Shown here piece by piece: positions 19,749-41,977 of a DNA stretch of 64,000 nt (positions within the stretch are counted from its first letter, which is position 1; the number at the start of each line of letters is the position of its first letter). The translations under genes were made by a program, and so were the position numbers. Origin of the DNA: an uncultured Rhodobacterales bacterium (lineage in GTDB: Bacteria > Pseudomonadota > Alphaproteobacteria > Rhodobacterales > Rhodobacteraceae); contig CAZYBG010000003.1 in the NCBI GenBank assembly GCA_964645155.1, forward strand, positions 7,093-71,092. Reading direction: 5' to 3'. The notes below the pieces were generated by a model that was given only the letters and a program-made list of their open reading frames with translations, searched no databases and had not been told where the DNA came from.

Positions 19749-19881
19749 GGGCACCTTCTGGGGCATATCCCCCAGGGCTGGCGGACCGGGAATATGCCGC
19801 CGGCCCAATCGTATACCTCAGGGTGAGGGCAGGCCGCCTGTGCCTTCCGTTGATTGCGCGAGCTCGCGCCGGGGTCTAAAC

Positions 19882-21291: not shown

Positions 21292-21292
21292 C

Positions 21293-24267: not shown

Positions 24268-24331
24268 GCGAGACGCGCCCGACGGAATCAGGAAATGCCA
24301 GTCGGCATCACGTGATAGAGTGCGCCTTGCG

Positions 24332-25946: not shown

Positions 25947-25971
25947 GGAACAATCCGCGGCGTTCCCGGTT
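25947..25971 (+). promoter_or_regulatory. EcfG-type promoter candidate (GGAAC-N16-GGTT) upstream of the stress trio
   Basis: GGAAC 25947-25951 and GGTT 25968-25971, about 53 nt before GTG 26024. Confidence 0.6.
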
Positions 25972-26023
25972 CGGTCGGTTCTCATGGCGCCCGGATCGGG
26001 CGCGCCAAAGGCAGGAGGACGCG

Positions 26024-26503
26024 GTGGCGAGATCGAGCGACGAGAAAATGAAGGCCGGCAGCGGCGCGGCCGACGACGCCAAAGCCGCGACCGAGAACAT
26101 GGGCGAGGCGGCCGCAGGGGCCGGCGCCGAAGTGCGCAAGCGGGTCGGATCGGCCGCGGCGGCCGTCCAGCAGGATGCCATGAAGCGCGCCGAATCCGCG
26201 CGCGAGGGCGTCGCGGAAGACGTCGACGCGATCGCGCGCGCGCTTCAGCGCGGCGGCGAGGAGTTGCGTCCGGACTCGCCTCAGGCACGCGCCTGGGGGG
26301 GCCTCGCGGACCGCGTCGGCATCGCCGCCGAGGCGCTGCGAAGCCAGGACCTGCCCACCATGGCGAAGACCGTCGGAGCCTTCGCGCGCGAGAATCCGAC
26401 GACCTTCCTCGTCGGCGCGGCACTGATGGGTTTCGTGGCGAGCCGCTTTGCCCTTGCGACAGACCAGCGCGAGGCGGAGCCCCGGCGGGGGGACTGGGCA
26501 TGA
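26024..26503 (+). CDS. Stress-associated hypothetical protein with C-terminal membrane anchor (nutrient-deprivation-induced-protein-like)
   Basis: GTG start with [10 protein letters not shown]. Ala/Glu-rich helical protein ending in ENPTTFLVGAALMGFVASRFAL. Preceded by a GGAAC-N16-GGTT motif. Confidence 0.55.
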   Translation: MARSSDEKMKAGSGAADDAKAATENMGEAAAGAGAEVRKRVGSAAAAVQQDAMKRAESAREGVAEDVDAIARALQRGGEELRPDSPQARAWGGLADRVGIAAEALRSQDLPTMAKTVGAFARENPTTFLVGAALMGFVASRFALATDQREAEPRRGDWA

Positions 26504-26904
26504 CCGATCCCGAAATCCAGCCGGCCGGCCGCGGCATCGCAGACCTCCTCGGCGACGCCACGCAGCACCTGTCGACACTCGTCCGGAAGGAGTTCGACCT
26601 GCTGCGCGCCGAGATGTCGGAGAAGGCCGGGGAACTCTCCAGCTCTGCGATGATGCTGGGCGTCGGCGCCATCATGGCGCTGGTGGCGCTCAACGTCCTC
26701 GCGATCGCGGCGGTGATCGGCCTGACCGAAAGCGGCCTCGAGCCGGGCTGGGCGGCGCTGATCGTGGGCGGCGCGGTCGCGCTCCTGGCGGTCGTGCTGA
26801 TCGGCATCGGCATGTCGGGGCTGAAGGCGAAGAACCTGGTGCCAAGGCGCACCGCACGGTCGCTGGAAAAAGACGCGACCACCATCGGGAGAGCAGCACG
26901 ATGA
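26500..26904 (+). CDS. Holin-X / DUF1469-family membrane protein
   Basis: ATGA overlap. LSTLVRKEFDLLRAEMSEK followed by two TM helices. This is the typical partner of the flanking genes. Confidence 0.6.
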   Translation: MTDPEIQPAGRGIADLLGDATQHLSTLVRKEFDLLRAEMSEKAGELSSSAMMLGVGAIMALVALNVLAIAAVIGLTESGLEPGWAALIVGGAVALLAVVLIGIGMSGLKAKNLVPRRTARSLEKDATTIGRAAR

Positions 26905-27986
26905 CTGACGAACGCAGCAGCGCCGAGATCGAACGCGAGATCGAGGCCGAACGTGGCGCCCTGGCCGGAACGCTCCGCGACATCCGCGAGAGCGTTTCGG
27001 TGGAAGCGGCGGTCCAGCGGATCGCCGAGAGCCTGCGCAGCAACAGCGGCGAGATCGCCGGGGCGGTGGGCCGCCAGGTGCGGGCCAACCCGCTCGGCGT
27101 CGCGCTCACGGGCATCGGGCTCGCATGGCTGATGATGGGGCCTCACACCCCGGATGCCGGCCGCGGAATGTCGGCGTCGGGCCGGCGCTTTGACGATGAC
27201 GACGATGACGACTGGGCCGTCGGCCGCTCGGACGTGGCCGACCGGGGCGCCTACCGGCCTTCGCCCGGCCTTGGCTTCGAAGACAGCATGTATGCCGGCG
27301 AAGAGCTGGGCGGCATGGATGCCGGGGCCCGGGACGGCGACGAGGCCGACCAGGGCAACGGCAGCACCGGGGCCGGCTGGACCGGGTCGGGCGCCGGCAG
27401 CGCCGCCCGGCGTCTGCGCTCGCGCAGCGCCGATCTGCGCAGCCGCATGCAGCACGGTCTCGAGGACCTCTCGGGCGCGGCGCGCGAGCGGGTGCTCGCC
27501 GCGCGGCGGGCGGCCGTCCATGCCCGGCAGCGGGCCGAAAGCATCGCGCGCCGCGGCACCCGGCGGGCGGCCGGCTTCTACCACGAGGCGCCGCTGGTAT
27601 CGGGCGCGGTCGCGATGGCAGTCGGCGCGGCGGTCGGCGCGCTTCTGCCCCGGACGCGAACCGAGGACGACCTGATGGGCGCCGAGTCGGACCGGTTGAT
27701 GGACGAGGCCCGGCGCATCTACGACGAGGAGAAGTCGCGGCTGGCGGATGCGGGTCGGGCCGTCGTCGAGACCGGGCGCGAAGCCGCGGGCGAGATCGCC
27801 GACGCGGCCGGCAAGGCGCTGACATCGGCCGGCCAGCGGATGGACGATCGCGAGCCGGGGCAGACCGGCAGCGATGATGGAACAGATGGAAGCGGGATGG
27901 ACCGTCCGCCGCCGGACGAGCCCGATCGCGACCTGCCGGGCACGATGCCTCCGATGCGCGGACCTTCGGGGCGCAGCATCGGCTGA
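26901..27986 (+). CDS. DUF3618-domain protein
   Basis: ATGA overlap. N-terminus ERSSAEIEREIEAERGALAGTLRDI is characteristic of DUF3618. Acidic low-complexity centre and a TM segment. Confidence 0.6.
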   Translation: MTDERSSAEIEREIEAERGALAGTLRDIRESVSVEAAVQRIAESLRSNSGEIAGAVGRQVRANPLGVALTGIGLAWLMMGPHTPDAGRGMSASGRRFDDDDDDDWAVGRSDVADRGAYRPSPGLGFEDSMYAGEELGGMDAGARDGDEADQGNGSTGAGWTGSGAGSAARRLRSRSADLRSRMQHGLEDLSGAARERVLAARRAAVHARQRAESIARRGTRRAAGFYHEAPLVSGAVAMAVGAAVGALLPRTRTEDDLMGAESDRLMDEARRIYDEEKSRLADAGRAVVETGREAAGEIADAAGKALTSAGQRMDDREPGQTGSDDGTDGSGMDRPPPDEPDRDLPGTMPPMRGPSGRSIG

Positions 27987-28026
27987 CCGGCGCCCGGCGC
28001 AGGCACGGACGACGACGTGAAGCAAC

Positions 28027-28056
28027 GAACGCCTCCGGCCCCGGCCGGAGGCGTTC
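28027..28056. terminator. GC-rich hairpin between convergent genes (possible bidirectional terminator)
   Basis: gaacgcctccggcc / ggccggaggcgttc forms a perfect 14-nt inverted repeat centred at about 28041, followed by ttcttcc. Lies between the stops at 27986 (+) and 28081 (-). Confidence 0.45.
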
Positions 28057-28080
28057 TTCCGTCGAAGCAATGCCGCAGGG

Positions 28081-28482
28081 TCAGCGCTCCTCGGGCTCCA
28101 GTTCGGGTCCCAGCACGACCGCCTCGATCCGGTTGCCCTCGGGGTCGCGGACGAAGGCGGCATAGTAGTCGGACCCGTATTCGGGCCTGAGGCCGGGCGC
28201 CCCGTCATCGGCGCCCCCGGCGCCCAGCGCCGCGTCGTGGAACGCGCGGACCGCTGCCCGCGAAGGCGCGCGAAACGCATGGTGCGTCTGCGACGGCGCG
28301 TTGGGAACGTCGACGGCGCTGATCAGGGTGAAGTCGTCGCGGCCGTCGCGCTGGAAGCTCGCGGTGCGGCCATTGGCCTCGCCCGGCACGATCCCGAGCG
28401 GCCGGAACGCGGCCTCGTAGAAGCGCCGGGCGCGGTCGAGGTCCGTCACCGCGAGCGTCACATGGTCGATCATCGAAGTCAT
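28081..28482 (-). CDS. VOC/glyoxalase-family protein
   Basis: 133 aa. IDHVTLAVTDLDRARRFYEAAF is the typical glyoxalase/bleomycin-resistance fold N-terminus. Confidence 0.8.
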   Translation of the reverse strand: MTSMIDHVTLAVTDLDRARRFYEAAFRPLGIVPGEANGRTASFQRDGRDDFTLISAVDVPNAPSQTHHAFRAPSRAAVRAFHDAALGAGGADDGAPGLRPEYGSDYYAAFVRDPEGNRIEAVVLGPELEPEER

Positions 28483-28571
28483 GGCAGGGTTCCCTTCCTG
28501 GCGTCGGGCAGGGGCGCGCCCGGGCCCCTCTCTGCGGCCGTCGCGGGCTTGGTTCGATCCGGGCCTGTCTC

Positions 28572-28596
28572 AACCGGCGAGGCGGGCAGACGTTCC
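28572..28596 (-). promoter_or_regulatory. EcfG-type promoter candidate (GGAAC-N16-GGTT) toward the VOC gene
   Basis: Plus strand AACC 28572-28575 and GTTCC 28592-28596, about 90 nt upstream of ATG 28482. Confidence 0.55.
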
Positions 28597-28662
28597 CGAG
28601 CGGCCCTCGGCGCGCGGCCGGGCGCGACCCCGGCTTCCGCCCGGCGGGATGGGCCGCAAGGG

Positions 28663-28687
28663 GGAACATGTGCCGCCCTGCCCGGTT
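28663..28687 (+). promoter_or_regulatory. EcfG-type promoter candidate (GGAAC-N16-GGTT) toward Mn catalase
   Basis: GGAAC 28663-28667 and GGTT 28684-28687, 33 nt before ATG 28720. Confidence 0.6.
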
Positions 28688-28719
28688 GCAGGGCCTCCCG
28701 GCAAGACAGAGGAGCCGAC

Positions 28720-29556
28720 ATGTTCCACCATTCTTCGAAACTTCAGTACGAGGTGCGGGTCGACCGCCCGAACCCCGTCTTCGCCAAGTGCCTCCAGCAG
28801 GCCATCGGCGGGATCGAGGGCGAGATCCGCGTGGCCATGCAGTACTTCTTCCAGGCGATGGGCGCGCACGGCGACGCCCGGTACCGCGACATGCTGATGA
28901 TGACCGCGACCGAAGAACTGTCGCATATCGAGTTCCTCGGCCACGCCGTTGCACTGAACCTCGACGGTGCGCCGGTGTCGATGCAGGACGAGGCCGCGCA
29001 GGACCCCGTCGTTCATGCGATCCTCGGCGGCATGAACCCGCGGCATCTCCTGTCCGCCGGCCTCGCGGCGATGCCGGTCAACGCGAACGGGGTGCCGTTC
29101 GACATGAGCCATGTCTATGCCACCGGCAACATCGGTGCCGACATGCTGGCCAACGCCACCGCCGAGGCCGGTGGCCGCGTCCTCGCCAGCCGGCTCTACA
29201 ACATGACTGACGATGCCGGCATGAAGGACATGCTGTCGTTCCTGATCGCGCGCGACACGATGCACCAGCAGCAATGGCTCGCCGTGCTGGAGGAGCTGGG
29301 CGGTTGGCAGGCGCAGCTGCCGATCCCGAACGCGACGCCGCCCGAGCACGAGGCGACCGAGCACAGCTACTACTTCCTGAACACCTCGCTCGACGCGCCG
29401 ACGCCCGAGGGCCGCTGGACCTCGGGGCCGTCGCTCGACGGGCGGGCGGAGTTCTCGGTGCGCGAGCGGGTGGAACCGCTGGGGCAGCAGGCGAGCCTCG
29501 GCCACGCCCGGCCGCAATCCGGGGCGCAACGCGAGCAGATCGGAAAGGGAGCATGA
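28720..29556 (+). CDS. Manganese catalase family protein
   Basis: ATG 28720 with GAGGAG RBS. KLQYEVRVDRPNPVFAKCLQQAIGGIEGEIRVAMQYFFQA and EELSHIEFL motifs. Confidence 0.85.
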   Translation: MFHHSSKLQYEVRVDRPNPVFAKCLQQAIGGIEGEIRVAMQYFFQAMGAHGDARYRDMLMMTATEELSHIEFLGHAVALNLDGAPVSMQDEAAQDPVVHAILGGMNPRHLLSAGLAAMPVNANGVPFDMSHVYATGNIGADMLANATAEAGGRVLASRLYNMTDDAGMKDMLSFLIARDTMHQQQWLAVLEELGGWQAQLPIPNATPPEHEATEHSYYFLNTSLDAPTPEGRWTSGPSLDGRAEFSVRERVEPLGQQASLGHARPQSGAQREQIGKGA

Positions 29557-29783
29557 AGATGGACGAGATCGACCGCGAGGAGCATGTCCGCCGGCGCGCC
29601 TATCAACTCTGGGAGCAGGAGGGCCGGCCCGAAGGCCGCGACACCGCGCACTGGAGCCAGGCCGAGGCCGAACTCGAGGTCGCGCCGGTGCGCGGCGACG
29701 GTGTCGCCGGCGATGGCGCGGACAACTCTGGCACCCGCCCGTCGCGGGCGCCAGCGCGGAACGCGCGTCGGGCCGAAGCCTGA
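29553..29783 (+). CDS. DUF2934-domain protein
   Basis: ATGA overlap with the catalase gene. RRRAYQLWEQEGRPEGRDTAHWSQAEAEL is the DUF2934 signature. Confidence 0.7.
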   Translation: MKMDEIDREEHVRRRAYQLWEQEGRPEGRDTAHWSQAEAELEVAPVRGDGVAGDGADNSGTRPSRAPARNARRAEA

Positions 29784-29921
29784 AAGCGCCACCGCCTGCC
29801 CCGAAGCACATGCAGGCAGGGCAGGCGACCGGCCGTCGGGCGCAACCGGACCGCTGGCCCCCGGGACAATCCCGGGATCATCCGGTGGGCATGGCCGCGC
29901 CGCTGCGCCGGACGCGCGACC

Positions 29922-30917
29922 TCATTCGGCCGCGGTCGGCGCGGCGCGGTCCGGCGGCCCGTCGCGGTAGAGCGCGAACCAGGCCGCCGTTTCGGCCAGG
30001 CCACGGTCGAGCGGCACGAGGGGCTGCCAGCCGAGGCAGTGCCGCGCCCGCGAGATATCGGGCCGCCGGCGCCGGGGGTCGTCGGCCGGCAGCGGCCGGA
30101 ACAGGATTTCGGACCGTGTCGGGATCATGCGCTGCACCATCCGCGCCAGGTCGAGAACGGTCACCTCGACCGGGTTGCCGAGATTGACCGGTCCGGGCGG
30201 GCGCTCCTCCACCTCCATGAGGGCGAGGAGCCCGCGCACCAGGTCGGAAACATAGCAGAACGACCGCGTCTGCCGCCCGTCGCCGTAGACGGTGAGAGGC
30301 CGGCCATCCAGCGCCTGCACGATCAGGTTCGAGACGATGCGCCCGTCGTCCGGCCGCATCCTGGGCCCGTAGGTGTTGAAGATCCGCGCCACCCGGACAT
30401 CGACATTGCCGGCGCGCAGGTAGTCGAAGCACAGCGTCTCGGCCGCGCGCTTGCCTTCGTCGTAACAGGCCCGTGTCCCGATCGGGTTGACATGGCCCCA
30501 GTAGTCCTCTGCCTGCGGATGCTGCTCGGGGTCGCCGTAGACCTCGCTCGTCGAGGCCTGCACGTACCGTGCGCCGTGCCGCCCGGCGAGTTCCAGGAGC
30601 CGCCCGGTTCCCACCACGTTGGTCATCATCGTGCGGATCGGCTCGGCCTGATAGTGCGGCGGGGAGGCCGGCGAGGCGAGGTTGTAGAGAAAGTCGATCC
30701 GCTCGGCCGGAAGGGCGTCGGTCGCGACATCAGCGCGCCAGAGGCGGAAGTTCCGGTCGTTCCGGAGCGGCCCGACATTGGCGGGGCGGCCGGTCTGGAA
30801 GCTGTCGACGCAGATCACGCGATGGCCGCGGGCGAGGAGCGCATCGCACAGATGCGATCCGACAAAGCCCGCACCGCCCGCGACGAGGGCGGTCTTCGGG
30901 AAGGACGCGACATTCAT
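29922..30917 (-). CDS. uxs: UDP-glucuronate decarboxylase (UDP-xylose synthase)
   Basis: 331 aa. GGAGFVGSHLCD, STSEVYGDP, YDEGKRAAETL, ARIFNTYGPRM. Last gene of the operon. Confidence 0.85.
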   Translation of the reverse strand: MNVASFPKTALVAGGAGFVGSHLCDALLARGHRVICVDSFQTGRPANVGPLRNDRNFRLWRADVATDALPAERIDFLYNLASPASPPHYQAEPIRTMMTNVVGTGRLLELAGRHGARYVQASTSEVYGDPEQHPQAEDYWGHVNPIGTRACYDEGKRAAETLCFDYLRAGNVDVRVARIFNTYGPRMRPDDGRIVSNLIVQALDGRPLTVYGDGRQTRSFCYVSDLVRGLLALMEVEERPPGPVNLGNPVEVTVLDLARMVQRMIPTRSEILFRPLPADDPRRRRPDISRARHCLGWQPLVPLDRGLAETAAWFALYRDGPPDRAAPTAAE

Positions 30918-31996
30918 GGTGTGACCTCCGTTGCAGTCGGGATACGGGCGAGCGCCACCGCAAGCTCCTCGGCACGCGCCGGTCCGGTATGTCGCGACAG
31001 AACGATGGCGCGCGCGCGGGCCGCCATGCGCCGGCGCTCCGCCTCGGGCATCGCAAGTGCGGCGACGACGTCGTCGCCGCTGTCGGCGATGGCGATCGCC
31101 TCGCCTTCCGGAAAGAGGTCAGCAAGTCCGTTCCAACGGTCCGACAGGACGGGCGTTCCGCAGGCTGCGGCCTCGAACAGCCGGACCGACGGCGCGTGCC
31201 CCGACCGGCGCATCGCCGCACGGGTCAGGTTCAGCGTGAAGCGCTGTCGGCCGTAGAAGGCGGCATGCTCGGCCGGCGGCAGATGCTCGATCCGCTCGAC
31301 ATTCGGCGGCCAGGCGATGCCTTCGGGATATTGCGCGCCGGCGACGACGAAGCGCGCCTGCGGCATCCGGCGCGCCGGATCGAGGAGCAGCGCCTCGAGC
31401 CCCGGCTGCCGGTCGGCACTGTAGGTGCCGAGGTAACCCAGATCCCACGACGGCACGAGCCCCTCCGGCCGGTAGAGATCGGGATCGACCGCGCAGAAGA
31501 GCGCCTCGGCGCGCCGCGCGCCGAGGCGCTCCAGCGTCTTCAGCGCGGCCCCGCCGGCGAACGAGAGGTAGAGGTCGAACGCGGCAAGCTGCCGCGGCAG
31601 GAGGTGGCTCGAGCCGCCGGCCGCGAGCTGTTCGAGCGTCACCGGCGTGTCGATGTCGTAGAACACCAGCCGCGCCGGGCGCTCCCGGATCAGCAGGTCG
31701 ATCAGCGCCGCGCCCTCGGGCACGCAGGAGCCGACGATCACCGCGTCGGCCCGCCGCAGCCGGGGGCGGAAAGCGGCGAGCCCGCCCAAATCGTCGTAGA
31801 GCGCGAAGTCGCAGAAGTCCGGCCGCGGCAGGTCGCGGTGCGCGGCGTACCAGGGCTGGTCGCGCTCCAGGAACAGCACCCGGTGGCCCCCGGCGGCGAG
31901 GCCGCGCAGCAGCGCGCGCCAGGTCGTGGCATGGCCATTGCCCCACGACGACGAGAGCGACAGGCCGAAGACCACGATGTCGAGCGGGCGAGTCAT
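30914..31996 (-). CDS. CgeB-family (Glyco_trans_1_2 / DUF3880-like) glycosyltransferase, paralog A
   Basis: ATGA overlaps at both ends. FGLSLSSSWGNGHATTWRALLRGLAAGGH and VRLFEAAACGTPVLSD. Confidence 0.65.
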   Translation of the reverse strand: MTRPLDIVVFGLSLSSSWGNGHATTWRALLRGLAAGGHRVLFLERDQPWYAAHRDLPRPDFCDFALYDDLGGLAAFRPRLRRADAVIVGSCVPEGAALIDLLIRERPARLVFYDIDTPVTLEQLAAGGSSHLLPRQLAAFDLYLSFAGGAALKTLERLGARRAEALFCAVDPDLYRPEGLVPSWDLGYLGTYSADRQPGLEALLLDPARRMPQARFVVAGAQYPEGIAWPPNVERIEHLPPAEHAAFYGRQRFTLNLTRAAMRRSGHAPSVRLFEAAACGTPVLSDRWNGLADLFPEGEAIAIADSGDDVVAALAMPEAERRRMAARARAIVLSRHTGPARAEELAVALARIPTATEVTP

Positions 31997-33072
31997 GCGG
32001 TCTCCCTCCGGGCAAGTATGCCGAGGCGCTCGACGACCTGTTCGGCGCGGTGGGCATAGGTGTGCTGGGCGAGCACCCGGGCGCGGGCCGCGGCGCCGAT
32101 CCGCGCCGCCGCCTCGGCCGACAGGCCGGCGAGGATCTCGGCGACGTCCCGACCGTCGCGCGCGACGAGGATCTCGGCGCCCGGCTCGAGAAAGAGCGGG
32201 ATCCCCTCCCAGGCGTCGGTGATCAGGCAGGCGCCGGCGCCCGCGGCCTCGAACACCCGGGTCGCGGGCGAGAAGCCGACCTCGGCCATGCTGTCGCGCG
32301 CCACGTTCAGGACCGCGCGGGGCGTGCAGTTGAAGGCGTTGTGGTCGGCCGTGCCGACATGGCCGAGCGCCAAGACATTGGCCGGCAGGCCCTCGCCCCA
32401 GCCGGACCCGCCGAGAAGGAACCGGTCGGCGGGCCTGAGGCGGGCCGGGCGGAGGAAGAACTCGGCCGCCCGCGCCTCGCGGTCCGGCAGCCGGTTCGCG
32501 AGGAACCCCAGATCGGCGGCGAACCGTGGGTTCGGGGCAACCGGGTGATGGGTGTCGGGGTCGAGCGCGTTGTAGACCGGGACGCAGTCGCGCGCGCCCA
32601 GGGCGCGGTAGCCGAGGACCACCGGCGCGCCGCCGCCATAGGTCAGGATCAGATCGAAGGCGGGAAGCTGCTGCCGGAGCGGATGCGCCGAATCGGCGCG
32701 CATCGCGGCCAGCGTCGCCGGCGCGTCGACATCCCACCAGAGCCGGAGCGCGTCGGGACGCGCCTGCGCCAGCACCGCCTCGCGCAGCCGGTCGTCCTCG
32801 AACCCGATGCCGGAGGCCACGACGACGGCGTCGGCGGCCCCGGCGCAGGCCGCGGCCGAGGCAAGACCGGCCGACGTGCCGGGCCAGACGTTGACGCGGC
32901 ACCAGTCGGGCATCGCGATGTCGCGGTGCTGCCGACGCTCCCACACGTCGGGCTCGTGGAAGGTGATCTCGAAGCCGCGCGCCGCGAGGGCCCGGAGCAG
33001 GCCGCGGTAGTAGGTGGCGGCGCCGTTCCAGTACGAGGACAGCAGGCTCGAGCCGTAGAACGCGAGCTTCAT
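31993..33072 (-). CDS. CgeB-family glycosyltransferase, paralog B
   Basis: YGSSLLSSYWNGAATYYRGLLRALAARG and TRVFEAAGAGACLITD. ATGA overlaps at both ends. Confidence 0.65.
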   Translation of the reverse strand: MKLAFYGSSLLSSYWNGAATYYRGLLRALAARGFEITFHEPDVWERRQHRDIAMPDWCRVNVWPGTSAGLASAAACAGAADAVVVASGIGFEDDRLREAVLAQARPDALRLWWDVDAPATLAAMRADSAHPLRQQLPAFDLILTYGGGAPVVLGYRALGARDCVPVYNALDPDTHHPVAPNPRFAADLGFLANRLPDREARAAEFFLRPARLRPADRFLLGGSGWGEGLPANVLALGHVGTADHNAFNCTPRAVLNVARDSMAEVGFSPATRVFEAAGAGACLITDAWEGIPLFLEPGAEILVARDGRDVAEILAGLSAEAAARIGAAARARVLAQHTYAHRAEQVVERLGILARRETA

Positions 33073-34178: not shown

Positions 34179-34181
34179 CGG

Positions 34182-35258
34182 CTATTCCGCCGCCTGCCGG
34201 ACGGTGAGCCGCCGGTAGAGGGCCAGCATGTCGTCGGCCTGCCGCTCGGGCGCGAACCGAAGTGCCCGCGCCTGCGCCGCGGCGCCGCGGCGCGCCCGCT
34301 CCTCGGGGTCGTCGGCAAGCCGGTCGAGAAGCGCGGCGAGCGCCACGGGATCGCGCGGGTCGAAGAAGGCCGCCGCCCCCTCCCACAGCTCGCGATAGGT
34401 CGGGATGTCGCTCAGCACCAGCGGGCGGCCGAGCCGCGCAGCCTCGAGGGCGGCAAGGCCGAAGGGCTCGTAGAGCGAGGGCGACACAAAGATCGCGGCC
34501 TCGCGCATGGCGGCGATCGCCGCGGCGTGCGGAACCGGCCCGAGAGCGCGTGCGGGGGCGGGGTGCAGGCGCTGGCCGTCATACGCTTCGGTGGCGCCCA
34601 CGAGAGTGACCGGCACGCGGGAGAGCCGCGCCGCGGCGACGAGGACCGCGCCGTTCTTGCCGCGGTCCCACCACCGGCCGCAGGCGATGGCGCCGCGGCC
34701 GCCGCCGGGAGCGCCCGTCTCCACCCGGCTCGTGTTCGCGACCGCCGCCACGTCGGCAAGGCCGTAGACCTCGGCGGTCTCGCGGGCGTGGGCGCGGCTC
34801 GGCGCCACCACCGCGGCCGCCCGCGCCAGGCCGCGGCGCGCCAGGGCCTCGTGCCAGGCGAAGCCGGCCGGTGCCGGCCGGCCCTCGACCGCACGGAACC
34901 AGGTCCCGAGGCACGAATGGCAGACCGCCACGATCGGCTTGCCGATCGCCAGGTCGGCCGCCTGCGTCGGCAGGTTGACCTGGACGAGATCGGGGCGGTG
35001 CATCCTGACGAGCAGCGCCAGCCAGCGTCCGACGCCGGCAAGATCGCCCGGACGGCGCGCGCGCCAGTCCAGCGGCAGATCGCCCCAGACCAGCATCCCG
35101 GCGGCCGCGGCCTCGGCGACCTGGGCGCCCGACGGGCGGGGGCCGAGGCCGGCGAAGACGATCCGGCAGCCACGATCGGCCAGTGCCCCGCCGAGATCTA
35201 TCGCGTAGCGCCAGATCCCACCGACCGCATCGACGGTCATCAGCACCGCCGTGCTCAT
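34182..35258 (-). CDS. Glycosyltransferase family 4
   Basis: ATG 35258 in an ATGA overlap with the upstream gene. GGIWRYAIDLGGAL and LYEPFGLAALEAARLGRPLVLSD. Confidence 0.75.
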   Translation of the reverse strand: MSTAVLMTVDAVGGIWRYAIDLGGALADRGCRIVFAGLGPRPSGAQVAEAAAAGMLVWGDLPLDWRARRPGDLAGVGRWLALLVRMHRPDLVQVNLPTQAADLAIGKPIVAVCHSCLGTWFRAVEGRPAPAGFAWHEALARRGLARAAAVVAPSRAHARETAEVYGLADVAAVANTSRVETGAPGGGRGAIACGRWWDRGKNGAVLVAAARLSRVPVTLVGATEAYDGQRLHPAPARALGPVPHAAAIAAMREAAIFVSPSLYEPFGLAALEAARLGRPLVLSDIPTYRELWEGAAAFFDPRDPVALAALLDRLADDPEERARRGAAAQARALRFAPERQADDMLALYRRLTVRQAAE

Positions 35259-37240
35259 GCGCTCACCCTCTCCGCCGCAACCGGCAGCCGATGTTCTGCG
35301 AGCCAGCCGGCCAGGCGCCGCAGCCCCGGCCGCCAGCCGACACGCGGCGCCCAGCCCGTTGCGGCGCGGAGTGCCGCCGTGTCGGCCACGAACCACGCCT
35401 GGTCGCCCGGCCGCCAGTCGGCCTGGCGCACCTCCATCGGGCCGCCGGTGATGCGGCCGATCTCGTCGATCACATGGCGCAGGCTGACCGCGTTCGCCGG
35501 CCCGCCGCCGAGGTTGAAGGCACGGCCCCCGACGGCGGCGAAGCGCGCCATGGCGAGGCGGTAGGCGGCGACCGCGTCGGACACCTCGCACACGTCGCGG
35601 ACCTGGCGGCCGGTGCCGTAGACGGTGATCGGCCGCCCCGCAAGGGCCGCGATCAGGAAATGCGCCACCCAGCCCTGGTCCTCGGTGCCGAACTGGCGCG
35701 GCCCGTAGATGCACGACATCCGCAGCACCGCCGCCGGCAGCCCATAGCTCTTGGCGTAGTCGAGCACGTACTGGTCGGCGACCCCCTTCGAACAGCCATA
35801 GGGCGTGCAGAAGGCAAGCGGCGCACGCTCGTCGATGCCCATCGCCAGCGCGGGGTCGGTCGGGGCGCAGGCGGCCTCGGTCTCGACGATCGCCAGATCG
35901 GAGAGGTCGCCGTAGACCTTGTTGGTGGATGCGAAGATCAGCGGGATCTCCCGCCCGCTGGCGCGGACCGCCTCGAGAAGGTTCAGCGTGCCGCGCGCGT
36001 TCACCTCGAAATCCTCGACCGGCGCCGCGAGGCTCGTCGTCACCGCGGTCTGGGCGGCGAGGTGATAGATCTCGCCGGCGTTCCGCACCGCCGCGGCAAG
36101 CGCCCGATCGTCCCGCAGGTCGGCGAGAACCGGGTGCACGCGGCGCGGGTGCCGCGCTGTCAGCCAGGCGAGGTTCTCCTCCACCCCCGGGCGCGACAGG
36201 TTGTCGAGCACGACGACGTCGCGCGCATCGGCCGCAAGGCTGTCGACGAGGTTCGAGCCGACGAAACCCGCCCCGCCGGTGACCACCACCGGCCGGGCCG
36301 CCGGGCCGAGCGCCGGGGCGGCGAGGCCCGCGACCTCGCGCAGCCGGTCGAGGCCGCCGTCGCAGAGCATCCTCGCCAGCAGTTTCGGCTGGTTGTCGGA
36401 CGTGACCGCACCGAGGTGATAATGGCGCGGATCGAACCAGAGCCCGTCCTGCGTCGCTACGTCGGGAGCGAGGTCGCGCCAGCCGTACCAGTAGAGCCGG
36501 TCGGCGGGCGCCGCGAGCGCGCTCACGAACCGGCGCGCCTGTTCGACCTGATCGTTGCGCCAGGTGGAATAGCCGGCCTCGGTGATCCAGATCTGCGCGG
36601 CCGGGTTGTGCCGGTCGAGCACCGCGCGCATCTCGCCCAGGTGCAGGTCCCAGCCCGACCAGTGGCCGGCCTCGCTTTCCCAGGTGCCGGGAAAGCCGTG
36701 GAACCCCACCGCATGCATCAGCGCCAGAAGCCCGCGCCGGCCCATGAGATCGAGCCAGAGCGGATCGAACGGGCACGGACCGCCCAGCACGGGCTTCCAG
36801 CCGCGATGCCGCGCCCAGTGCGCCGCCATCCCGATCATCTCGCAGAACAGGTCGAAATCGGGGTCGGCCCGCCAGTCCCAGTCGAGCAGGTTGTTGGGCT
36901 CGTTCCAGAGCTCGACATGCTCGAAATGGTCACCGTGGCGGGTCAGCACCAGGTCGATGAAGTCGGCGAAGTCCTGAAGCCGCTCGGGCGGGCCGGAGCT
37001 GCGCCCGGTGCGCGACAGCGAGGGCGGCGTGTAGTGGATGCAGGGCATCAGCTCGATCTCGGCGGCAAGGCGCGGGATCAGCCAGTCGAACCACTCCCGC
37101 CCGCCGGGAGCGTGGTATTCTGCCCACGAAAGATGCGTGCGCAGCCACGCGGCGCCCGAACCGGTCAGGCCCGGCATCACCGCCTCCACATGCGCGCGGT
37201 CGCCGGGGCGGAACCACTCGACAAAGCCGAAGGCGGTCAC
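35255..37240 (-). CDS. Fusion: clan GH-A-like TIM-barrel glycosidase domain + CDP-paratose/tyvelose 2-epimerase-like SDR domain
   Basis: GTG 37240 in a GTGA overlap. N-terminal half has ELWNEPN (acid/base-like) and IWITEAGYS (nucleophile-like). C-terminal half has VTGGAGFVGSNL, DNLSRPG, STNKVYGDL, PYGCSKGVADQY, DQGW, GRQVRDV. Confidence 0.7.
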   Translation of the reverse strand: MTAFGFVEWFRPGDRAHVEAVMPGLTGSGAAWLRTHLSWAEYHAPGGREWFDWLIPRLAAEIELMPCIHYTPPSLSRTGRSSGPPERLQDFADFIDLVLTRHGDHFEHVELWNEPNNLLDWDWRADPDFDLFCEMIGMAAHWARHRGWKPVLGGPCPFDPLWLDLMGRRGLLALMHAVGFHGFPGTWESEAGHWSGWDLHLGEMRAVLDRHNPAAQIWITEAGYSTWRNDQVEQARRFVSALAAPADRLYWYGWRDLAPDVATQDGLWFDPRHYHLGAVTSDNQPKLLARMLCDGGLDRLREVAGLAAPALGPAARPVVVTGGAGFVGSNLVDSLAADARDVVVLDNLSRPGVEENLAWLTARHPRRVHPVLADLRDDRALAAAVRNAGEIYHLAAQTAVTTSLAAPVEDFEVNARGTLNLLEAVRASGREIPLIFASTNKVYGDLSDLAIVETEAACAPTDPALAMGIDERAPLAFCTPYGCSKGVADQYVLDYAKSYGLPAAVLRMSCIYGPRQFGTEDQGWVAHFLIAALAGRPITVYGTGRQVRDVCEVSDAVAAYRLAMARFAAVGGRAFNLGGGPANAVSLRHVIDEIGRITGGPMEVRQADWRPGDQAWFVADTAALRAATGWAPRVGWRPGLRRLAGWLAEHRLPVAAERVSA

Positions 37241-38343
37241 GACACGAGCCCCCGCGCTTCCAGTTCGCGCCGCATCGCTGCGCCGCGGTCGGTGCCGGGC
37301 GCGCCGCGCACCCAGTCGGCGAAATCTGCCAGCGCGTGCTCGAGCGGATGTTCGGGCACGAAGCCGAGCAGCGTCTCCGCGCGGCCGATATCGGCAAAGC
37401 AGTTGCGGATGTCGCCGGCACGGAACCGGCCGAGAATCTCGGGCTCGATCCCGGGCCTGCCCATCGCGCCGGCCAGAAGTTCGGCGACCTGGCGGATCGA
37501 GTAGGCGCGCCCCGAGCCGACATTGATCGCCTCGCCCGCCACGCCGTCGCGTTCGAGCGCGAGGCGGAAGGCGCGCGCCACGTCGCGGACATGCACGAAG
37601 TCGCGCCGCTGCCGGCCGTCCTCGAAGATCGTCGGGCGCGCCCCGGCCCCGATCCGCGCGGCGAAGTTGGCCAGCACGCCGGTATAGGGGTTAGAAAGCG
37701 CCTGCCCGGCCCCGAAGACGTTGAAGAGCCTGAGCGCGACCGCCGGAATGTCGTAGGCCGCGCCGAAGATCAGCACCGCCCTTTCCTGGGCGTACTTGGT
37801 CAGCGCGTAGATCGAGGCGAGGTCCGGGCGCTTGGCTTCGTCGGTGGGCAGCGGCGTCAGCGCCGCGCCGTCGGGACCGACCGGGTCCCAGCGTCCGCCG
37901 CGCAGGTCCCGCACGGACCGGCGCGCGCCGGCGAACAGCGCGCCGCCGGGCAGCGCGTAGCGGCCCTCGCCGTAGATGCTCATCGAGGAGGCAACCACGA
38001 TCCGGTCCACCGGATGCTCGGCGATGGCCTCGAGCAGCACCGCCGTCCCGAGGTCGTTCGCGCCGACATAGCGGGCGATCTCGTACATCGACTGGCCGAC
38101 ACCGACCTCGGCGGCGAGGTGGATCACCGCGTCGCATCCGCGCAGCGCGTCCCCGAGGCGGCCGGCGTCGCGGACATCGCCGCGGACGACCTCGGCGCCG
38201 TCCGGAACTTCCGGCGCATTGCCGCCATGGACCTGGTCGATCATCGCGTCGTAGAGGCGCACCTCGTGCCCTGCGGCAAGCAGTTCGGCGGCGACGTGGC
38301 GGCCGATGAAGCCGCAGCCGCCGGTGATCAGGACATGGGACAT
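37237..38343 (-). CDS. NAD-dependent epimerase/dehydratase (SDR)
   Basis: 368 aa. ITGGCGFIGRH, HLAAEVGVGQS, ALTKYAQE (YxxxK). First gene of the operon. Confidence 0.8.
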   Translation of the reverse strand: MSHVLITGGCGFIGRHVAAELLAAGHEVRLYDAMIDQVHGGNAPEVPDGAEVVRGDVRDAGRLGDALRGCDAVIHLAAEVGVGQSMYEIARYVGANDLGTAVLLEAIAEHPVDRIVVASSMSIYGEGRYALPGGALFAGARRSVRDLRGGRWDPVGPDGAALTPLPTDEAKRPDLASIYALTKYAQERAVLIFGAAYDIPAVALRLFNVFGAGQALSNPYTGVLANFAARIGAGARPTIFEDGRQRRDFVHVRDVARAFRLALERDGVAGEAINVGSGRAYSIRQVAELLAGAMGRPGIEPEILGRFRAGDIRNCFADIGRAETLLGFVPEHPLEHALADFADWVRGAPGTDRGAAMRRELEARGLVS

Positions 38344-38379
38344 GGGCGGGGCTCCTCGACGCGTTTCGCGAGGTTCCGG

Positions 38380-38404
38380 AACCGGAGGTGGTCGGGTTTG
38401 TTCC
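38380..38404 (-). promoter_or_regulatory. EcfG-type promoter candidate (GGAAC-N16-GGTT) toward the SDR..CgeBx3..uxs operon
   Basis: Plus strand AACC 38380-38383 and GTTCC 38400-38404. The -10 lies 37 nt upstream of ATG 38343 and overlaps the 12-bp palindrome GGTTCCGGAACC (38372-38383). Confidence 0.55.
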
Positions 38405-38601
38405 CGGCTTTCCAGCGACTTCGGCGGAAGCGGGGGCGGAAGCGGGCCGGTTCTTCAACTTCATCAATGACTTCCGTGGAGACCGCCGGCAGCCGGTCGG
38501 GCGCCGCCGGCGGCACGGCAGCCGCGACCGGGAACAAAGCGCCGGCAGCGCCGGTTCGCCCCCCGCGCCGCGTCCCGGCGCGACCAACCCCGGGGGCTGC
38601 A

Positions 38602-39585
38602 ATGGATGGTGGACGGATCGGCGCGCGGCTCGAGGCGGCCCAGGTCACCGGGCCCGGCCGGGTCGCGGTCGTGGAACTGCCGCTGCCGGAGCCGGGCCCC
38701 GACGAGGTGCGGGTGCGGATCGAGGGCTGCGGCGTCTGCGCCTCGAACCTCGGCCCCTGGTCCGGCCCGCCATGGATGAGCTTTCCGCTGCCGCCGGGTG
38801 CGCTCGGCCACGAGGCCTGGGGGCGGATCGACGCGGTCGGCGCAGCGGTGAGCCCGGCGCGCCGGGGCGAGCGCGTGGCGATCCTCGGCTTCCACGGCTA
38901 TGCAAGCCACGACATCGTTCCGGCCGACGCGGCGCTGCCGCTGCCCGCCGCGCTCGAGGGGCAGGCCGTGCCGGCCGAGGCGATCGGCTGCGCGATGATG
39001 ATCTTCGGCCGGACCCGCATCCAGCCCGGCGAAATCGTTGCCATAGTCGGCATCGGCTTTCTCGGGGCGCTCCTGACGCGGCTCGCCGCCGCCGCGGGTG
39101 CGCGGGTCATCGCGCTCTCGCGGCGCGCCAGCAGCCTCGCCCTCGCCCGCCGCTGCGGTGCGTCCGAGACGATCGAGATGGCCGACCACGGCGCGATCCT
39201 CGCCCGTCTTGCCGAGCGGACCGGCGGCCGCGCCTGCGATGTCGCAATCGAGTGCACCGGGCACCAGTGGCCCCTCGACCTCGCGGCCGAAGCCCTGCGG
39301 GAAGGCGGGCGGCTGGTGATCGCGGGCTACCACCAGGACGGCCCGCGGCAGGTCAACATGCAGCTCTGGAACTGGCGCGCCCTCGATATCGTCAACGCCC
39401 ATGAGCGCGACCGCGGCAAGCTGCTGGCGGCGATGCGCGACGGGATCGCCGCCGTCGCCGACGGGCGGCTCGAACTCGCACCGCTGCTGACGCACCGCTA
39501 TTCGCTCGGCCGCCTCGCAGCCGCGCTCGACGCCACGCGCGACAAGCCCGAAGGTTTCGTCAAGGCGCTGGTGGTGCTGCGATGA
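38602..39585 (+). CDS. Zinc-type medium-chain alcohol dehydrogenase (MDR family)
   Basis: ATG 38602. GCGVCASNL, GHEAWGRI, Rossmann motif VGIGFLG. Confidence 0.75.
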   Translation: MDGGRIGARLEAAQVTGPGRVAVVELPLPEPGPDEVRVRIEGCGVCASNLGPWSGPPWMSFPLPPGALGHEAWGRIDAVGAAVSPARRGERVAILGFHGYASHDIVPADAALPLPAALEGQAVPAEAIGCAMMIFGRTRIQPGEIVAIVGIGFLGALLTRLAAAAGARVIALSRRASSLALARRCGASETIEMADHGAILARLAERTGGRACDVAIECTGHQWPLDLAAEALREGGRLVIAGYHQDGPRQVNMQLWNWRALDIVNAHERDRGKLLAAMRDGIAAVADGRLELAPLLTHRYSLGRLAAALDATRDKPEGFVKALVVLR

Positions 39586-40664
39586 CCCGGCCCGCGATGG
39601 CCCGGCCGCGCGTCGGCTTCCTCGGTCTCGGCTGGATCGGGCGGCACCGGTTCGAGGCGCTGGCCGGCACCGGCGCGATCGACGTCGTCGCCCTTGCCGA
39701 TACCGCGCCCGAGGCGGTCGCGGCCTGCGCCGGCGCCTGCCCCGGCGCCCGGCTCGGATCGACGCTCGACGATGTCCTCGCCGCACGCCCGGAAGGCGTG
39801 GTGATCGCGACCCCGTCGGCGCTGCATGCGGCGCAGGCCGTCGCGGCGCTCGAGGCCGGGGCGGCGGTGTTCTGCCAGAAGCCGCTCGGCCGGAACGCGG
39901 CCGAGACGCGGGCGGCCGTCGCTGCGGCGCGCCGGGCCGACCGGCTGCTTGCCGCCGACCTCTCCTACCGCCACACCGCCGGCATGGTGGCGATCCGGCA
40001 GGCGGTGGAGGGTGGCCGCATCGGCCGCCCGCTGGCGCTCGACCTGACGTTTCACAACGCCTACGGGCCGGACAAGCCCTGGTTCCACGACCGCGCGCTT
40101 TCGGGTGGCGGATGCGTGATCGACCTCGGCGTGCATCTGGTCGACCTCGCGCTGTGGCTGACCGGATGGCCCGGCCTGCGCTGCACCTCGGCGCAGCTCT
40201 TCTCCGGCGGGGCGAGGCTCTCCGTCGGCGACCCGGCGGTCGAGGACTTCGCGATGGCCACGCTCGAGACCACGGCAGGCGGTGTCGTCCGCATCGCCTG
40301 TTCGTGGAACCTGTCCGCCGGCTGCGATGCGGTGATCCGCGCCGAGATCCATGGCGACCGCGGCGGCGCCGTCCTCGCCAATGTCGGCGGCTCGTTCTAC
40401 GATTTCGAGGCCCATCTCCTCCACGGCCGCGAGCGGCAACTGCTGGCGGTTCCGCCGGACGACTGGGGCGGCCGCGCAGCGGTGGCCTGGCTGGAGCAAC
40501 TCGCCAATGGCGCCGGCTTCGACCCGGCCTGCGAGGGCCTCGTCACGCTCGCCGAGGCTCTGGACGCAATCTACGGTCACTCGCCCGGCGCGGCGGTGTC
40601 GGCGCCGCGCGGTGCGGCGGCCTCCCTCGGCGCCCGCAGGAAGGCGGCAGGGCCCTTGCGGTAG
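39582..40664 (+). CDS. Gfo/Idh/MocA-family oxidoreductase
   Basis: ATGA overlap. VGFLGLGWIGRHR N-terminal Rossmann motif and FCQKPL block. Confidence 0.8.
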   Translation: MTRPAMARPRVGFLGLGWIGRHRFEALAGTGAIDVVALADTAPEAVAACAGACPGARLGSTLDDVLAARPEGVVIATPSALHAAQAVAALEAGAAVFCQKPLGRNAAETRAAVAAARRADRLLAADLSYRHTAGMVAIRQAVEGGRIGRPLALDLTFHNAYGPDKPWFHDRALSGGGCVIDLGVHLVDLALWLTGWPGLRCTSAQLFSGGARLSVGDPAVEDFAMATLETTAGGVVRIACSWNLSAGCDAVIRAEIHGDRGGAVLANVGGSFYDFEAHLLHGRERQLLAVPPDDWGGRAAVAWLEQLANGAGFDPACEGLVTLAEALDAIYGHSPGAAVSAPRGAAASLGARRKAAGPLR

Positions 40665-40721
40665 CGAAACGCGCCGGGGCCGCAATCGCGCGCCCCGGCA
40701 CTGCAGTATCAGGCGGCGGTC

Positions 40722-41225
40722 TCAGGCGGCCATCCGGTTCAGCCGCTCCTCGGCGACGCGCGAAAGCTTGGCGTCGGCCGCCTTCTCCTCCTCCAGCGTC
40801 TGCTTCAGAAGCTCGGCGCAATCGGTCCGGCCGAGTTCCTGCGACCAGGCGATCAGGGTTCCGTAGCGGGTGATCTCGTAGTGCTCGACCGCCTGCGCGG
40901 ACGCGGCGATGGCGGCATCGAGGACGCTCGAATCCTCGACCTCGCTGGCGATCTCCTCGGCTTCCTTGATGATGCCGTCGATCGCCGGGCAGTTGGTTCC
41001 GCCGGCTTCCTCACCCAGCAGCGCGAACACCTGCTCCAGCCGCTCGACCTGCCGCTCGGTCTCGTGCAGGTGCGCCTGCAGTCCGTCGCGCAGCGCCCCT
41101 TCCGAGGCCTTGTCGATCATCTTCGGCAGGGCGTTCACGATCTGCTTCTCGGCGTAGTAGATGTCGCGAAGCTGGTGCATGTAGAGGTCGTCCATCGACT
41201 GGATGTCATAGGAAAAAAGCGCCAT
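40722..41225 (-). CDS. DUF892 (YciE/YciF-like) ferritin-like stress protein
   Basis: 167 aa. LYMHQLRDIYYAEKQIVNALPKM and AVEHYEITRYGTLIAW are signature blocks. Confidence 0.85.
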   Translation of the reverse strand: MALFSYDIQSMDDLYMHQLRDIYYAEKQIVNALPKMIDKASEGALRDGLQAHLHETERQVERLEQVFALLGEEAGGTNCPAIDGIIKEAEEIASEVEDSSVLDAAIAASAQAVEHYEITRYGTLIAWSQELGRTDCAELLKQTLEEEKAADAKLSRVAEERLNRMAA

Positions 41226-41324
41226 TCATGGCCTCCTGACTTCGGGTTGCGTCGTTCATGGGGCGGGGTCGATCGCCAGCTCGGTGACCACTGCCAACCG
41301 TCTGTCGCCCCTCAGGGCAGGGGC

Positions 41325-41349
41325 AACCGCAGCGCCCGCCGATTGTTCC
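41325..41349 (-). promoter_or_regulatory. EcfG-type promoter candidate (GGAAC-N16-GGTT) toward the DUF892 gene
   Basis: Plus strand AACC 41325-41328 and GTTCC 41345-41349, about 100 nt upstream of ATG 41225. Confidence 0.55.
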
Positions 41350-41389
41350 CCGATCGGCGGCCCGGCCACGGCCCGGTCCGATGGCACAG

Positions 41390-41875
41390 TCAGATCGCCC
41401 GGTCGCCGAGTTCCGCCATCACCATCGCGCGGGCGCGGTTCACGCGGCTCTTGATCGTGCCGACCTCGCAGCCGCAGATGCGGGCCGCCGTCTCGTAGCT
41501 TTCGCCCATCATCACGACCAGGACGAGCGTCTCGCGGTAGTGGTTCGGCAGGCGCTGAACCACCCTCATCAGCTCGCCGCCGCGCACCACCCACTCCTGG
41601 GTCGAGGCGCTCGATGCCGTGCCCGACACGCAGTCCTCCGAACCGGTGCGCTCGCGCTTGGTCTTGGCCAGCGTGTTGAAGAACGAATTGCGCATGATCG
41701 TGAATAGCCACGCCCGCAGCCGCGTGCCCGGGGTGAAGCTGTCGATGTTCGCCAGCGCCCGCACCAGCGTGTCCTGGACAAGATCATCGGCATCGGGGCG
41801 GTTGCGGCACAGGACATAGGCATAGGCCCTGAGCGCCGGCAGGAGCGCCACGACATCGGCCCGGACATCCGGCAT
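41390..41875 (-). CDS. ecfG: ECF sigma factor, EcfG/RpoE2-type (general stress response)
   Basis: ATG 41875. LPALRAYAYVLCRNRPDADDLVQDTLVRALANIDSFTPGTRLRAWLFTIMRN and ICGCEVGTIKSRVNRAR closely follow the S. meliloti RpoE2 pattern as I recall it. Confidence 0.8.
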   Translation of the reverse strand: MPDVRADVVALLPALRAYAYVLCRNRPDADDLVQDTLVRALANIDSFTPGTRLRAWLFTIMRNSFFNTLAKTKRERTGSEDCVSGTASSASTQEWVVRGGELMRVVQRLPNHYRETLVLVVMMGESYETAARICGCEVGTIKSRVNRARAMVMAELGDRAI

Positions 41876-41951
41876 GTTCCTTGCTGCTTCGACCACGTGT
41901 TGCGAACCCGTCGACAGAGACGATACCCCCGAGCGGGGGCGTTGCGCGCAT

Positions 41952-41977
41952 AACGCCGTTGTCGCGACAGCAGTTCC
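41952..41977 (-). promoter_or_regulatory. EcfG-type promoter candidate (GGAAC-N17-CGTT), autoregulatory position upstream of ecfG
   Basis: Plus strand AACG 41952-41955 and GTTCC 41973-41977. Lies between the NepR-like ORF stop (42019) and the ecfG ATG (41875). Confidence 0.6.

Follow-up and report, generated by a model that had tools for sequence, protein, structure and literature searches.

A predicted EcfG-type general stress regulon in a 64-kb stretch of an uncultured Rhodobacterales genome

The intergenic regions of a 64,000-nucleotide (nt) stretch of DNA from an uncultured Rhodobacterales bacterium (GenBank assembly GCA_964645155.1, contig CAZYBG010000003.1, positions 7,093 to 71,092; the whole stretch is referred to as the window) repeatedly contain the motif GGAAC-N16/17-[C/G]GTT, which raises the question of what reads these elements. 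An earlier note on this DNA had listed nine such sites and proposed that they are promoters of a general stress regulon controlled by the sigma factor EcfG. EcfG-type (ECF15) sigma factors are the master regulators of the alphaproteobacterial general stress response (GSR). On the basis of the analysis reported here, we put the probability that RNA polymerase with an EcfG-type (group ECF15) extracytoplasmic-function (ECF) sigma factor reads the motifs as promoters at roughly 0.88. The proposal that they define a local regulon is upheld by the statistics, by the identity of the targets and by conservation across genomes.

All nine sites are present where the earlier note had placed them, on the strands it had given. 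A scan of both strands of the whole window yielded 11 exact matches, with an intergenic site at 38531-38556(+) and an intragenic one at 31135-31159(-) having been missed. Conversely, 6121-6145(+) and 6123-6147(-) are a single palindrome read on either strand, and the nine listed sites thus correspond to eight independent elements. The span assigned to the regulon, 25947-41977, also omits the sites at 6.1 kb that the same list contains. In 100 dinucleotide-preserving shuffles of the window, 0.91 ± 1.16 matches were found (maximum 5), in line with the previous estimate of approximately one chance match over 64 kb and far below the 11 observed.

As the window is approximately 72% G+C, raw lists of open reading frames (ORFs) were of no use, and we therefore built a self-trained codon-usage gene caller for it. 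This yielded a set of 62 genes and left 4,605 nt (7.2% of the window) as intergenic DNA; one gene, encoding a COX2-like protein at approximately 8106-8680, was overlooked by the caller and spotted by eye, and public gene calls agree with it. All but one of the 11 matches fall into this intergenic fraction (binomial P = 4e-11), whereas shuffled intergenic segments contained a mean of only 0.085. Each of the ten has a start codon 33-154 nt downstream and is productively oriented with respect to it, including all of the four to five sites located between co-directional genes. The earlier claim that the listed sites are intergenic and aimed at a nearby start codon thus stands, and the comparison of genic with intergenic density and of orientation, made within the window, falls on the same side. 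The placement is that of EcfG promoters, which face a gene start typically within ~100-150 nt.

The signal is confined to the two spacer lengths of the -35 GGAAC/-10 (C)GTT promoter type, 16 and 17 nt. Control spacers of 12-15 and 18-22 nt gave 0-3 matches each, with one intergenic match in total. When TGTT was also allowed as -10 box, 10 matches with a 16-nt and 4 with a 17-nt spacer were obtained, 13 of them intergenic, and 13 of the 18 intergenic GGAAC pentamers have [C/G/T]GTT at one of these two distances. Across the window sites the dinucleotide following GGAAC is A/T-rich and a C precedes the -10 box. Outside these positions the sites are unrelated: identity among their flanks and spacers is 0.29-0.33, as compared with 0.30 for random DNA of 72% GC. 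This shows that they are independent rather than copies of a repeat, and an origin in a repeat or mobile element was rejected on these grounds.

The core of the motif, AAC-N18-GTT, is self-complementary, and direction is carried only by the two leading G residues and the base that precedes GTT. A true site consequently yields a degenerate mirror match on the other strand, for which relaxed scans need to allow. When the -35 box was relaxed to NGAAC or GNAAC, five of the six intergenic matches were found to be strand mirrors of true sites. The only new element is the GCAAC-N16-CGTT site at 8024-8048(-), 33 nt before a gene for a DUF2231 membrane protein (7476-7991, -). The relaxed scan revealed no GGAAC site with a CATT or AGTT box in the window.

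These properties bear on whether the matches might simply be a by-product of chance, composition or repeats in GC-rich intergenic DNA, devoid of promoter function. It is true that one exact match is intragenic (31135-31159), that two pairs of matches are strand mirrors of single elements and that the self-complementary core inflates relaxed counts. However, the shuffles predict 0.91 matches for the window and 0.085 for its intergenic DNA where 11 and 10 are seen, the signal is restricted to spacers of 16 and 17 nt with unrelated flanks, and, as described below, the motif is kept before orthologues across orders and a transcription start site has been mapped at the orthologous Sinorhizobium meliloti site. 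Taken together, the shuffle, spacer, flank and conservation controls effectively refute a chance origin, which we regard as extremely improbable.

Two of the elements are full palindromes (GGAAC-N17-GTTCC) in divergent intergenic regions, at 6121-6147 and 38378-38404, and similar palindromes occur in three of the comparison loci (L083, L084 and L086). This could indicate that the GGAAC...GTT elements, and the palindromic ones in particular, are binding sites of a dimeric transcription factor and not sigma factor promoters. While the palindromes thus recur in several loci, they are not enriched, as GTT is followed by CC in 10 of 126 cases at a spacer of 16 nt compared with 18 of 230 at control spacers (Fisher P = 1); both a dimeric-regulator site and a dedicated bidirectional promoter were rejected on these counts. 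Most sites are, moreover, asymmetric and strictly gene-directed, with a spacing that fits -35/-10 geometry, and the dimeric-factor explanation is accordingly given very little weight. EcfG-type promoters remain the preferred reading of these elements.

Annotation of the putative target genes with Pfam and NCBIfam agrees with the identities proposed in the earlier note. A GGTT-type promoter at 28663-28687(+) precedes genes for a Mn catalase and a DUF2934 protein (28720-29783, +), while one at 28572-28596(-) faces a glyoxalase/VOC gene (28081-28473, -). The GGTT sites at 25947-25971(+) and 41325-41349(-) serve, respectively, a trio encoding apolipoprotein-like, Holin-X (PF07332) and DUF3618 proteins (26048-27986, +) and a DUF892 (YciF-like) gene (40722-41225, -). 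An 8.4-kb glycan operon (38343 to 29922, -) has its GGTT site at 38380-38404(-), mirrored by a TGTT-containing match at 38378-38402(+). In the same intergenic region, the newly identified site at 38531-38556(+) (N17, GGTT) lies 46 nt before genes for a Zn-dehydrogenase and a Gfo/Idh/MocA oxidoreductase (38602-40664, +). A membrane-bound pyrroloquinoline quinone (PQQ) dehydrogenase, split into the genes g4 and g3 (3756-6049, -), is preceded by an N17 GGTT site at 6092-6117(-). Adjacent to it, the palindromic element GGAACG-N15-CGTTCC (6121-6147, both strands) reads towards CtaG-like and UPF0093 genes (g5 and g6; 6299-7506) as 6121-6145(+) and towards g4-g3 as 6123-6147(-). Finally, a GGAAC-N17-CGTT site at 41952-41977(-) is located 77 nt before a gene for an EcfG-type sigma factor (41390-41875, -).

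We sought the motif at homologous loci in other genomes. In the case of the Mn catalase, 80 alphaproteobacterial loci encoding proteins 80-89% identical were examined, and GGAAC-N16/17-NGTT was found no more than 300 nt upstream in 41 of these, with ~0.5 expected. The motif lies within 100 nt upstream in 38 loci, and six more have it at -500 to -600. A tblastn comparison of all window proteins with these catalase-centred loci placed the motifs almost only before homologues of the genes predicted to be first in their units. Homologues of the Holin-X trio have the motif upstream in L005, L030 (Paracoccus) and L058, and that of the sigma gene is kept before orthologues in Cereibacter (L086 and L087), Salipiger (L084) and a metagenome-assembled genome (L006). 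The earlier note had singled out the PQQ dehydrogenase, the oxidase-assembly genes and the glycan operon as less expected targets; at all of these the motif is kept at homologous loci.

The glycan operon (29922-38343, -) encodes three SDR epimerases/dehydratases and four glycosyltransferases. Together with the divergent oxidoreductase pair it is syntenic with clusters on pSymB of S. meliloti (L082) and on pAK1 of Paracoccus sp. AK26 (L083), both of which contain divergent motif pairs at the matching intergenic position, the plus-strand motifs occupying the place equivalent to 38531-38556(+). In S. meliloti 1021, the counterparts are SMb20239-SMb20245 for the glycan genes and SMb20246/SMb20247 for the oxidoreductases. 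Expression of SMb20239-47 rises by log2 2.2-5.8 upon over-expression of rpoE2, with values of 5.82 for SMb20246 and 2.61 for SMb20247, and a start site, SMb_TSS0411, has been mapped behind the annotated RpoE2 promoter GGAACAC-TCCCGCGAAAGAG-AGGTTT (GGAACAC-N13-AGGTTT) (PMC3616915 supplement). This annotated promoter is exactly the motif found here in L082. As the S. meliloti genes are RpoE2-induced and their start site is mapped, EcfG control of the glycan operon is experimentally established at the orthologous locus; by analogy, both the sigma factor dependence and the transcription start may be carried over to the glycan/oxidoreductase module of the window. In the Paracoccus locus, further GSR-type motifs at 14094-14118(-) and 1650-1674(+) stand beside the glycan module, before genes for a ClpP protease subunit and a DUF2934 protein, and a gene at the edge of this locus encodes an EcfG-like sigma factor 55% identical to that of the window.

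The single intragenic match, 31135-31159(-), falls inside a glycosyltransferase gene of this operon. It probably arose by chance, since ~0.85 chance matches are expected in the ~59 kb of coding DNA, and no counterpart is present in the syntenic loci of S. meliloti pSymB and Paracoccus pAK1; possibly it serves the last gene of the operon as an internal promoter. A second glycan cluster in the window (11566-22510, minus strand) contains no EcfG motif. It comprises a response-regulator::GT28 fusion (18090-19664), two GT4 genes, an ABC exporter and APH-like kinases, and divergent from it are genes for a histidine kinase and a sigma-54-type activator (19906-22510).

The split of the PQQ dehydrogenase is conserved. 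The g4 gene is a transmembrane ORF of 123-135 amino acids with a 4-nt overlap with that of a 629-residue propeller (3756-5645), which aligns to positions 152-782 of TIGR03074, and a g4 homologue is present in 17 metagenome loci. Among 60 metagenomic PQQ-dehydrogenase loci with usable upstream sequence, the motif occurs no more than 900 nt upstream in 24; in relatives 64-84% identical its position is fixed at -346 to -387 from the dehydrogenase start, directly before the g4-like ORF. In the closest relatives (L088 and L089), the motif, g4, g3, g5 and g6 follow one another in this order on one strand with a single motif, which indicates that one motif-driven operon comprises the CtaG-like and UPF0093 genes as well as the dehydrogenase. 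A separate motif precedes g5 in L092. In the window the two halves run in opposite directions, g4-g3 being inverted with respect to g5-g6, and both have a site of their own; this inversion accounts for the divergent pair and the three motif readings within a gap of 250 nt. Orthologues of the neighbouring DUF2231 gene have a near-identical GCAAC...GAGCGTT site in Paracoccus (L025 and L030) and in the same two metagenome loci, L088 and L089. A literature search for links between EcfG and PQQ, DUF892 or YciF yielded nothing relevant, and neither PQQ nor a quinoprotein, glucose dehydrogenase or glyoxalase is listed in the S. meliloti supplementary tables.

Beyond the DUF2231 gene lies the COX2-like cupredoxin gene (8106-8680, +; 191 amino acids, PF00116), in which the CuA region reads SSEYSGPGY and lacks Cys or His ligands; this suggests that it encodes a quinol-oxidase-type subunit II. 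This gene runs up to the ATG of an 838-codon COX1 gene (8678-11194), and a 100-codon ORF comes next. No strict or relaxed motif was found in the window upstream of this COX2-COX1 operon.

The sigma factor encoded at 41390-41875 consists of 161 amino acids and has the Pfam domains Sigma70_r2 (PF04542), Sigma70_r4_2 (PF08281) and PhyR_sigma2 (PF22029), the last with a score of 54 bits against a cutoff of 27. Its best match in the PDB is 5UXX_A (E 1.8e-31), with all other ECF sigma factors at 2e-18 or weaker. As chain B of the same entry is named 'Anti-sigma factor NepR', the structural relative of the window protein is a NepR-bound sigma factor of the EcfG type. The closest named homologues are from Rhodobacterales (62-68% identity), and all have the same Pfam signature. 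In its sigma-2 and sigma-4 regions the protein is thus most like EcfG and the sigma-like domain of PhyR, which places it in the EcfG/ECF15 family, and the presence of a promoter at 41952-41977(-) implies either autoregulation or control by a master EcfG.

Upstream of this promoter lies a 61-codon ORF (42019-42204, -), a candidate for the anti-sigma factor NepR. It has no family match in Pfam or NCBIfam, NepR included, and a PDB search with the single sequence returned only designed helical repeat proteins. Small ORFs with a NepR signature (...PVPxxLLxLARRL...) lie next to the orthologous sigma genes, and it does resemble these. A profile of the ORF and four of these flanking ORFs placed the NepR chains 2LFW_B, 5UXX_B and 4QIC_B among the top five PDB matches, at weak E values of 0.17-0.28. 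The similarity to NepR is therefore only suggestive.

The canonical EcfG copy adjoins nepR and phyR, and extra copies occur in approximately half of alphaproteobacterial genomes (PMC3892343). Neither the 62 genes of the window nor the 10 kb to its right include a phyR gene, with its sigma-like and receiver domains, the left flank being covered for ~2 kb only. The sigma factor thus does not adjoin phyR; such adjacency is a feature of the canonical copy and does not define the family. Consequently, the earlier description of 'ecfG itself' as a target stands as far as the EcfG type of the sigma factor is concerned, while its status as the master copy is less certain. The promoter stands after the NepR-like ORF, directly before the sigma gene, and does not precede a nepR-ecfG operon; in view of this and of the missing phyR, the gene may be a non-canonical or secondary EcfG copy, comparable with the S. 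meliloti rpoE5 gene, which is RpoE2-dependent (PMC6180224). The Salipiger and Cereibacter orthologues also stand alone without an adjacent phyR, and the arrangement may therefore be normal for the lineage.

The HWE/HisKA_2 histidine kinases are the family that controls PhyR. One member is encoded at 24320-25888(+) (Pfam HisKA_2 and HWE_HK; its top NCBIfam match, PhyK, is below the curated cutoff), directly upstream of the Holin-X trio promoter, and is a possible general-stress sensor. The kinase gene has no EcfG-type motif of its own, strict or relaxed.

We infer that the promoters fire under stress in this organism, in a manner modelled on the studied species. Stress would be sensed by HWE/HisKA_2 kinases, leading to phosphorylation of PhyR, and phospho-PhyR would titrate the anti-sigma factor NepR such that EcfG is set free. 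EcfG would then recognise promoters with a -35 box GGAAC (once GCAAC) and a -10 box [G/C/T]GTT 16-17 nt further on, 30-150 nt before the first gene. This would jointly induce the units for Mn catalase/DUF2934, VOC/glyoxalase, DUF892, the Holin-X/DUF3618 trio, the glycan operon, the oxidoreductase pair, the PQQ dehydrogenase, CtaG-like/UPF0093, DUF2231 and the sigma factor, with positive feedback through the promoter of the sigma gene.

Several observations weigh against this assignment. Approximately half of the catalase and PQQ-dehydrogenase homologue loci do not contain the strict motif, and the matches at 31135-31159, 58744-58769 and 52-76 are without conservation support. The phyR gene is absent from the window and from 10 kb to its right (with ~2 kb covered on the left), and the NepR assignment is weak (E about 0.2). 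In addition, the sigma factor does not reach the curated cutoff for any of the specific sigma models in NCBIfam and may for this reason be a secondary paralogue, and boxes of the GGAAC...GTT type are common to some other ECF groups.

The last points concern which sigma factor acts at these sites. The promoters could be genuine ECF promoters that are read in vivo mainly by a sigma factor other than that at 41390-41875, either a canonical, phyR-linked EcfG encoded elsewhere, with the window protein a downstream secondary paralogue with few or distinct targets (as for S. meliloti RpoE5 and Caulobacter crescentus SigU), or a member of another ECF group with overlapping specificity. For the former speak the lack of an adjacent phyR, the sigma gene's own GSR-type promoter after a NepR-like ORF, which is reminiscent of the RpoE2-dependent rpoE5 (PMC6180224), and the occurrence of non-canonical EcfG copies in approximately half of alphaproteobacterial genomes (PMC3892343); the latter has a precedent in S. 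meliloti RpoE6 (ECF26), which overlaps with the RpoE2 regulon (PMC6180224). On the other hand, the Rhodobacterales orthologues are also stand-alone with NepR-like ORFs alongside, which may simply be the lineage norm. We consider that another reader is a real possibility, to which we assign appreciably less than even odds. Such a reader would refine rather than contradict the assignment to EcfG, because the regulon remains an EcfG/GSR regulon either way.

The earlier note had also proposed a lineage-specific preference for GGTT on the basis of six of nine sites. This count is correct, and the box is a published variant. Among the 11 independent intergenic sites of the window, the first base of the -10 box is G in 7, C in 2 and T in 2, while the excess over background at spacer 16 in the 83 other loci is 37 for T, 31 for C, 19 for G and 5 for A. 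The share of G is therefore 7/11 in the window vs ~21% elsewhere (P about 0.0025), a bias that is only suggestive, since it rests on 11 sites and is confounded with the 72% G+C of the window; a lineage preference is possible but unproven. Sphingopyxis granuli has an almost invariant -35 box, with GCAAC in second place, and a flexible -10 box, with TGTT, CATT and GGTT as the commonest alternatives; the consensus, these three -10 boxes and the GCAAC variant have been verified by in vitro transcription (PMC7083833). For Sphingomonas melonis the motif is given as GGAAC-N17-20-GTT, and EcfG motifs concentrate no more than 100 bp from the coding start (PMC6599016). The orthologous S. meliloti promoter itself contains AGGTT.

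Two additional elements of the TGTT type are present in the window. The first, GGAACCTTCTTCCACCCCGACTGTT at 52-76(+), is intergenic and lies 70 nt before genes for a levansucrase (GH68) and a GH32 protein, and is considered a candidate promoter. The second, at 58744-58769(+) (N17), is a weak candidate located at an atypical distance of 249 nt before hemP, and may be due to chance. A gene for an EF-hand Ca-binding protein (46152-46676, -) has no strict or relaxed motif upstream in the window; in S. granuli, an EF-hand protein is a GSR target with a GGTT box (PMC7083833).

The Mn catalase, the Holin-X/DUF3618 trio, the CtaG-like/UPF0093/DUF2231/COX block and the stand-alone EcfG-type sigma gene are recurrent neighbours in the window and in five further loci (L005, L006, L025, L030 and L042), which belong to several Rhodobacterales and unclassified alphaproteobacterial genomes. 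With approximately 12 sites in 64 kb in the window, this neighbourhood looks like a mobile or conserved 'stress island'. The glycan/oxidoreductase module and the split PQQ-dehydrogenase/CtaG-like operon also recur with these genes in several genomes.

Several targets that tend to be regarded as species-specific, namely the pSymB-type glycan operon with its oxidoreductases, the split PQQ-dehydrogenase/CtaG-like operon and DUF2231, emerge here as conserved EcfG targets across orders. This helps to define the core general-stress regulon and suggests that the conserved outputs of the stress response include remodelling of envelope glycans and oxidation in the periplasm. A more far-reaching view, which we put forward tentatively and think rather unlikely to hold in full, is that in this lineage and its relatives the general stress response controls a conserved, self-contained respiratory module and, given the placement of the promoter between nepR and ecfG, that this constitutes an undescribed branch of the EcfG regulon together with an undescribed variant of the circuit. 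In the module, assembly genes of the CtaG-like and UPF0093/HemJ-like types would share a transcript with the split, membrane-bound PQQ sugar dehydrogenase, adjoining DUF2231 and an oxidase with a CuA-less COX2 and a long COX1, and stress would turn on a shunt from periplasmic sugar oxidation to oxygen. An EcfG promoter located between nepR and ecfG would, in turn, uncouple feedback on the sigma factor from feedback on the anti-sigma factor.

The promoter type, the flexibility of its -10 box and the EcfG/NepR/PhyR partner switch are already established, and no new mechanism is involved. Like the window, the EcfG regulons of Sphingopyxis granuli TFA and Sphingomonas melonis Fr1 feature a GGAAC -35 box (with a GCAAC variant), a flexible -10 box and a short distance to the start codon, and their targets likewise include catalases, glycosyltransferases, Zn-dehydrogenases and regulators (PMC7083833, PMC6599016). 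They differ in that GGTT, the majority box of the window, is a minority box in both, and in that the primary ecfG of these species is part of a nepR-ecfG operon beside phyR, whereas in the window the promoter separates the sigma gene from the NepR-like ORF, with no phyR nearby. In the latter respect, the window is more akin to the secondary EcfG paralogues, namely Rhizobium etli EcfG2, S. meliloti RpoE5 and C. crescentus SigU, which are also stand-alone sigma factors of the ECF15 type with a GSR-type promoter and no adjacent phyR (PMC3892343, PMC6180224); unlike these, the window sigma gene and its Rhodobacterales orthologues have an adjacent NepR-like ORF. The closest parallel is the S. meliloti RpoE2 module SMb20239-45/SMb20246-47, which shares ~72% DNA identity with the window, the gene order, the divergence of the glycan genes from the Zn-dehydrogenase and Gfo/Idh/MocA genes, and the divergent GGAAC-N16-NGTT boxes in the intergenic region, with that of the glycan operon being of the GGTT type. 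The glycan operon of the window is without the terminal TIGR04290 methyltransferase gene, which is present in the S. meliloti and Paracoccus loci, and, in contrast to S. meliloti, the host of the window has a G+C content of 72% and its closest protein relatives in Rhodobacterales. What is added here is, therefore, a further instance of a known regulon in an unstudied high-G+C alphaproteobacterium.

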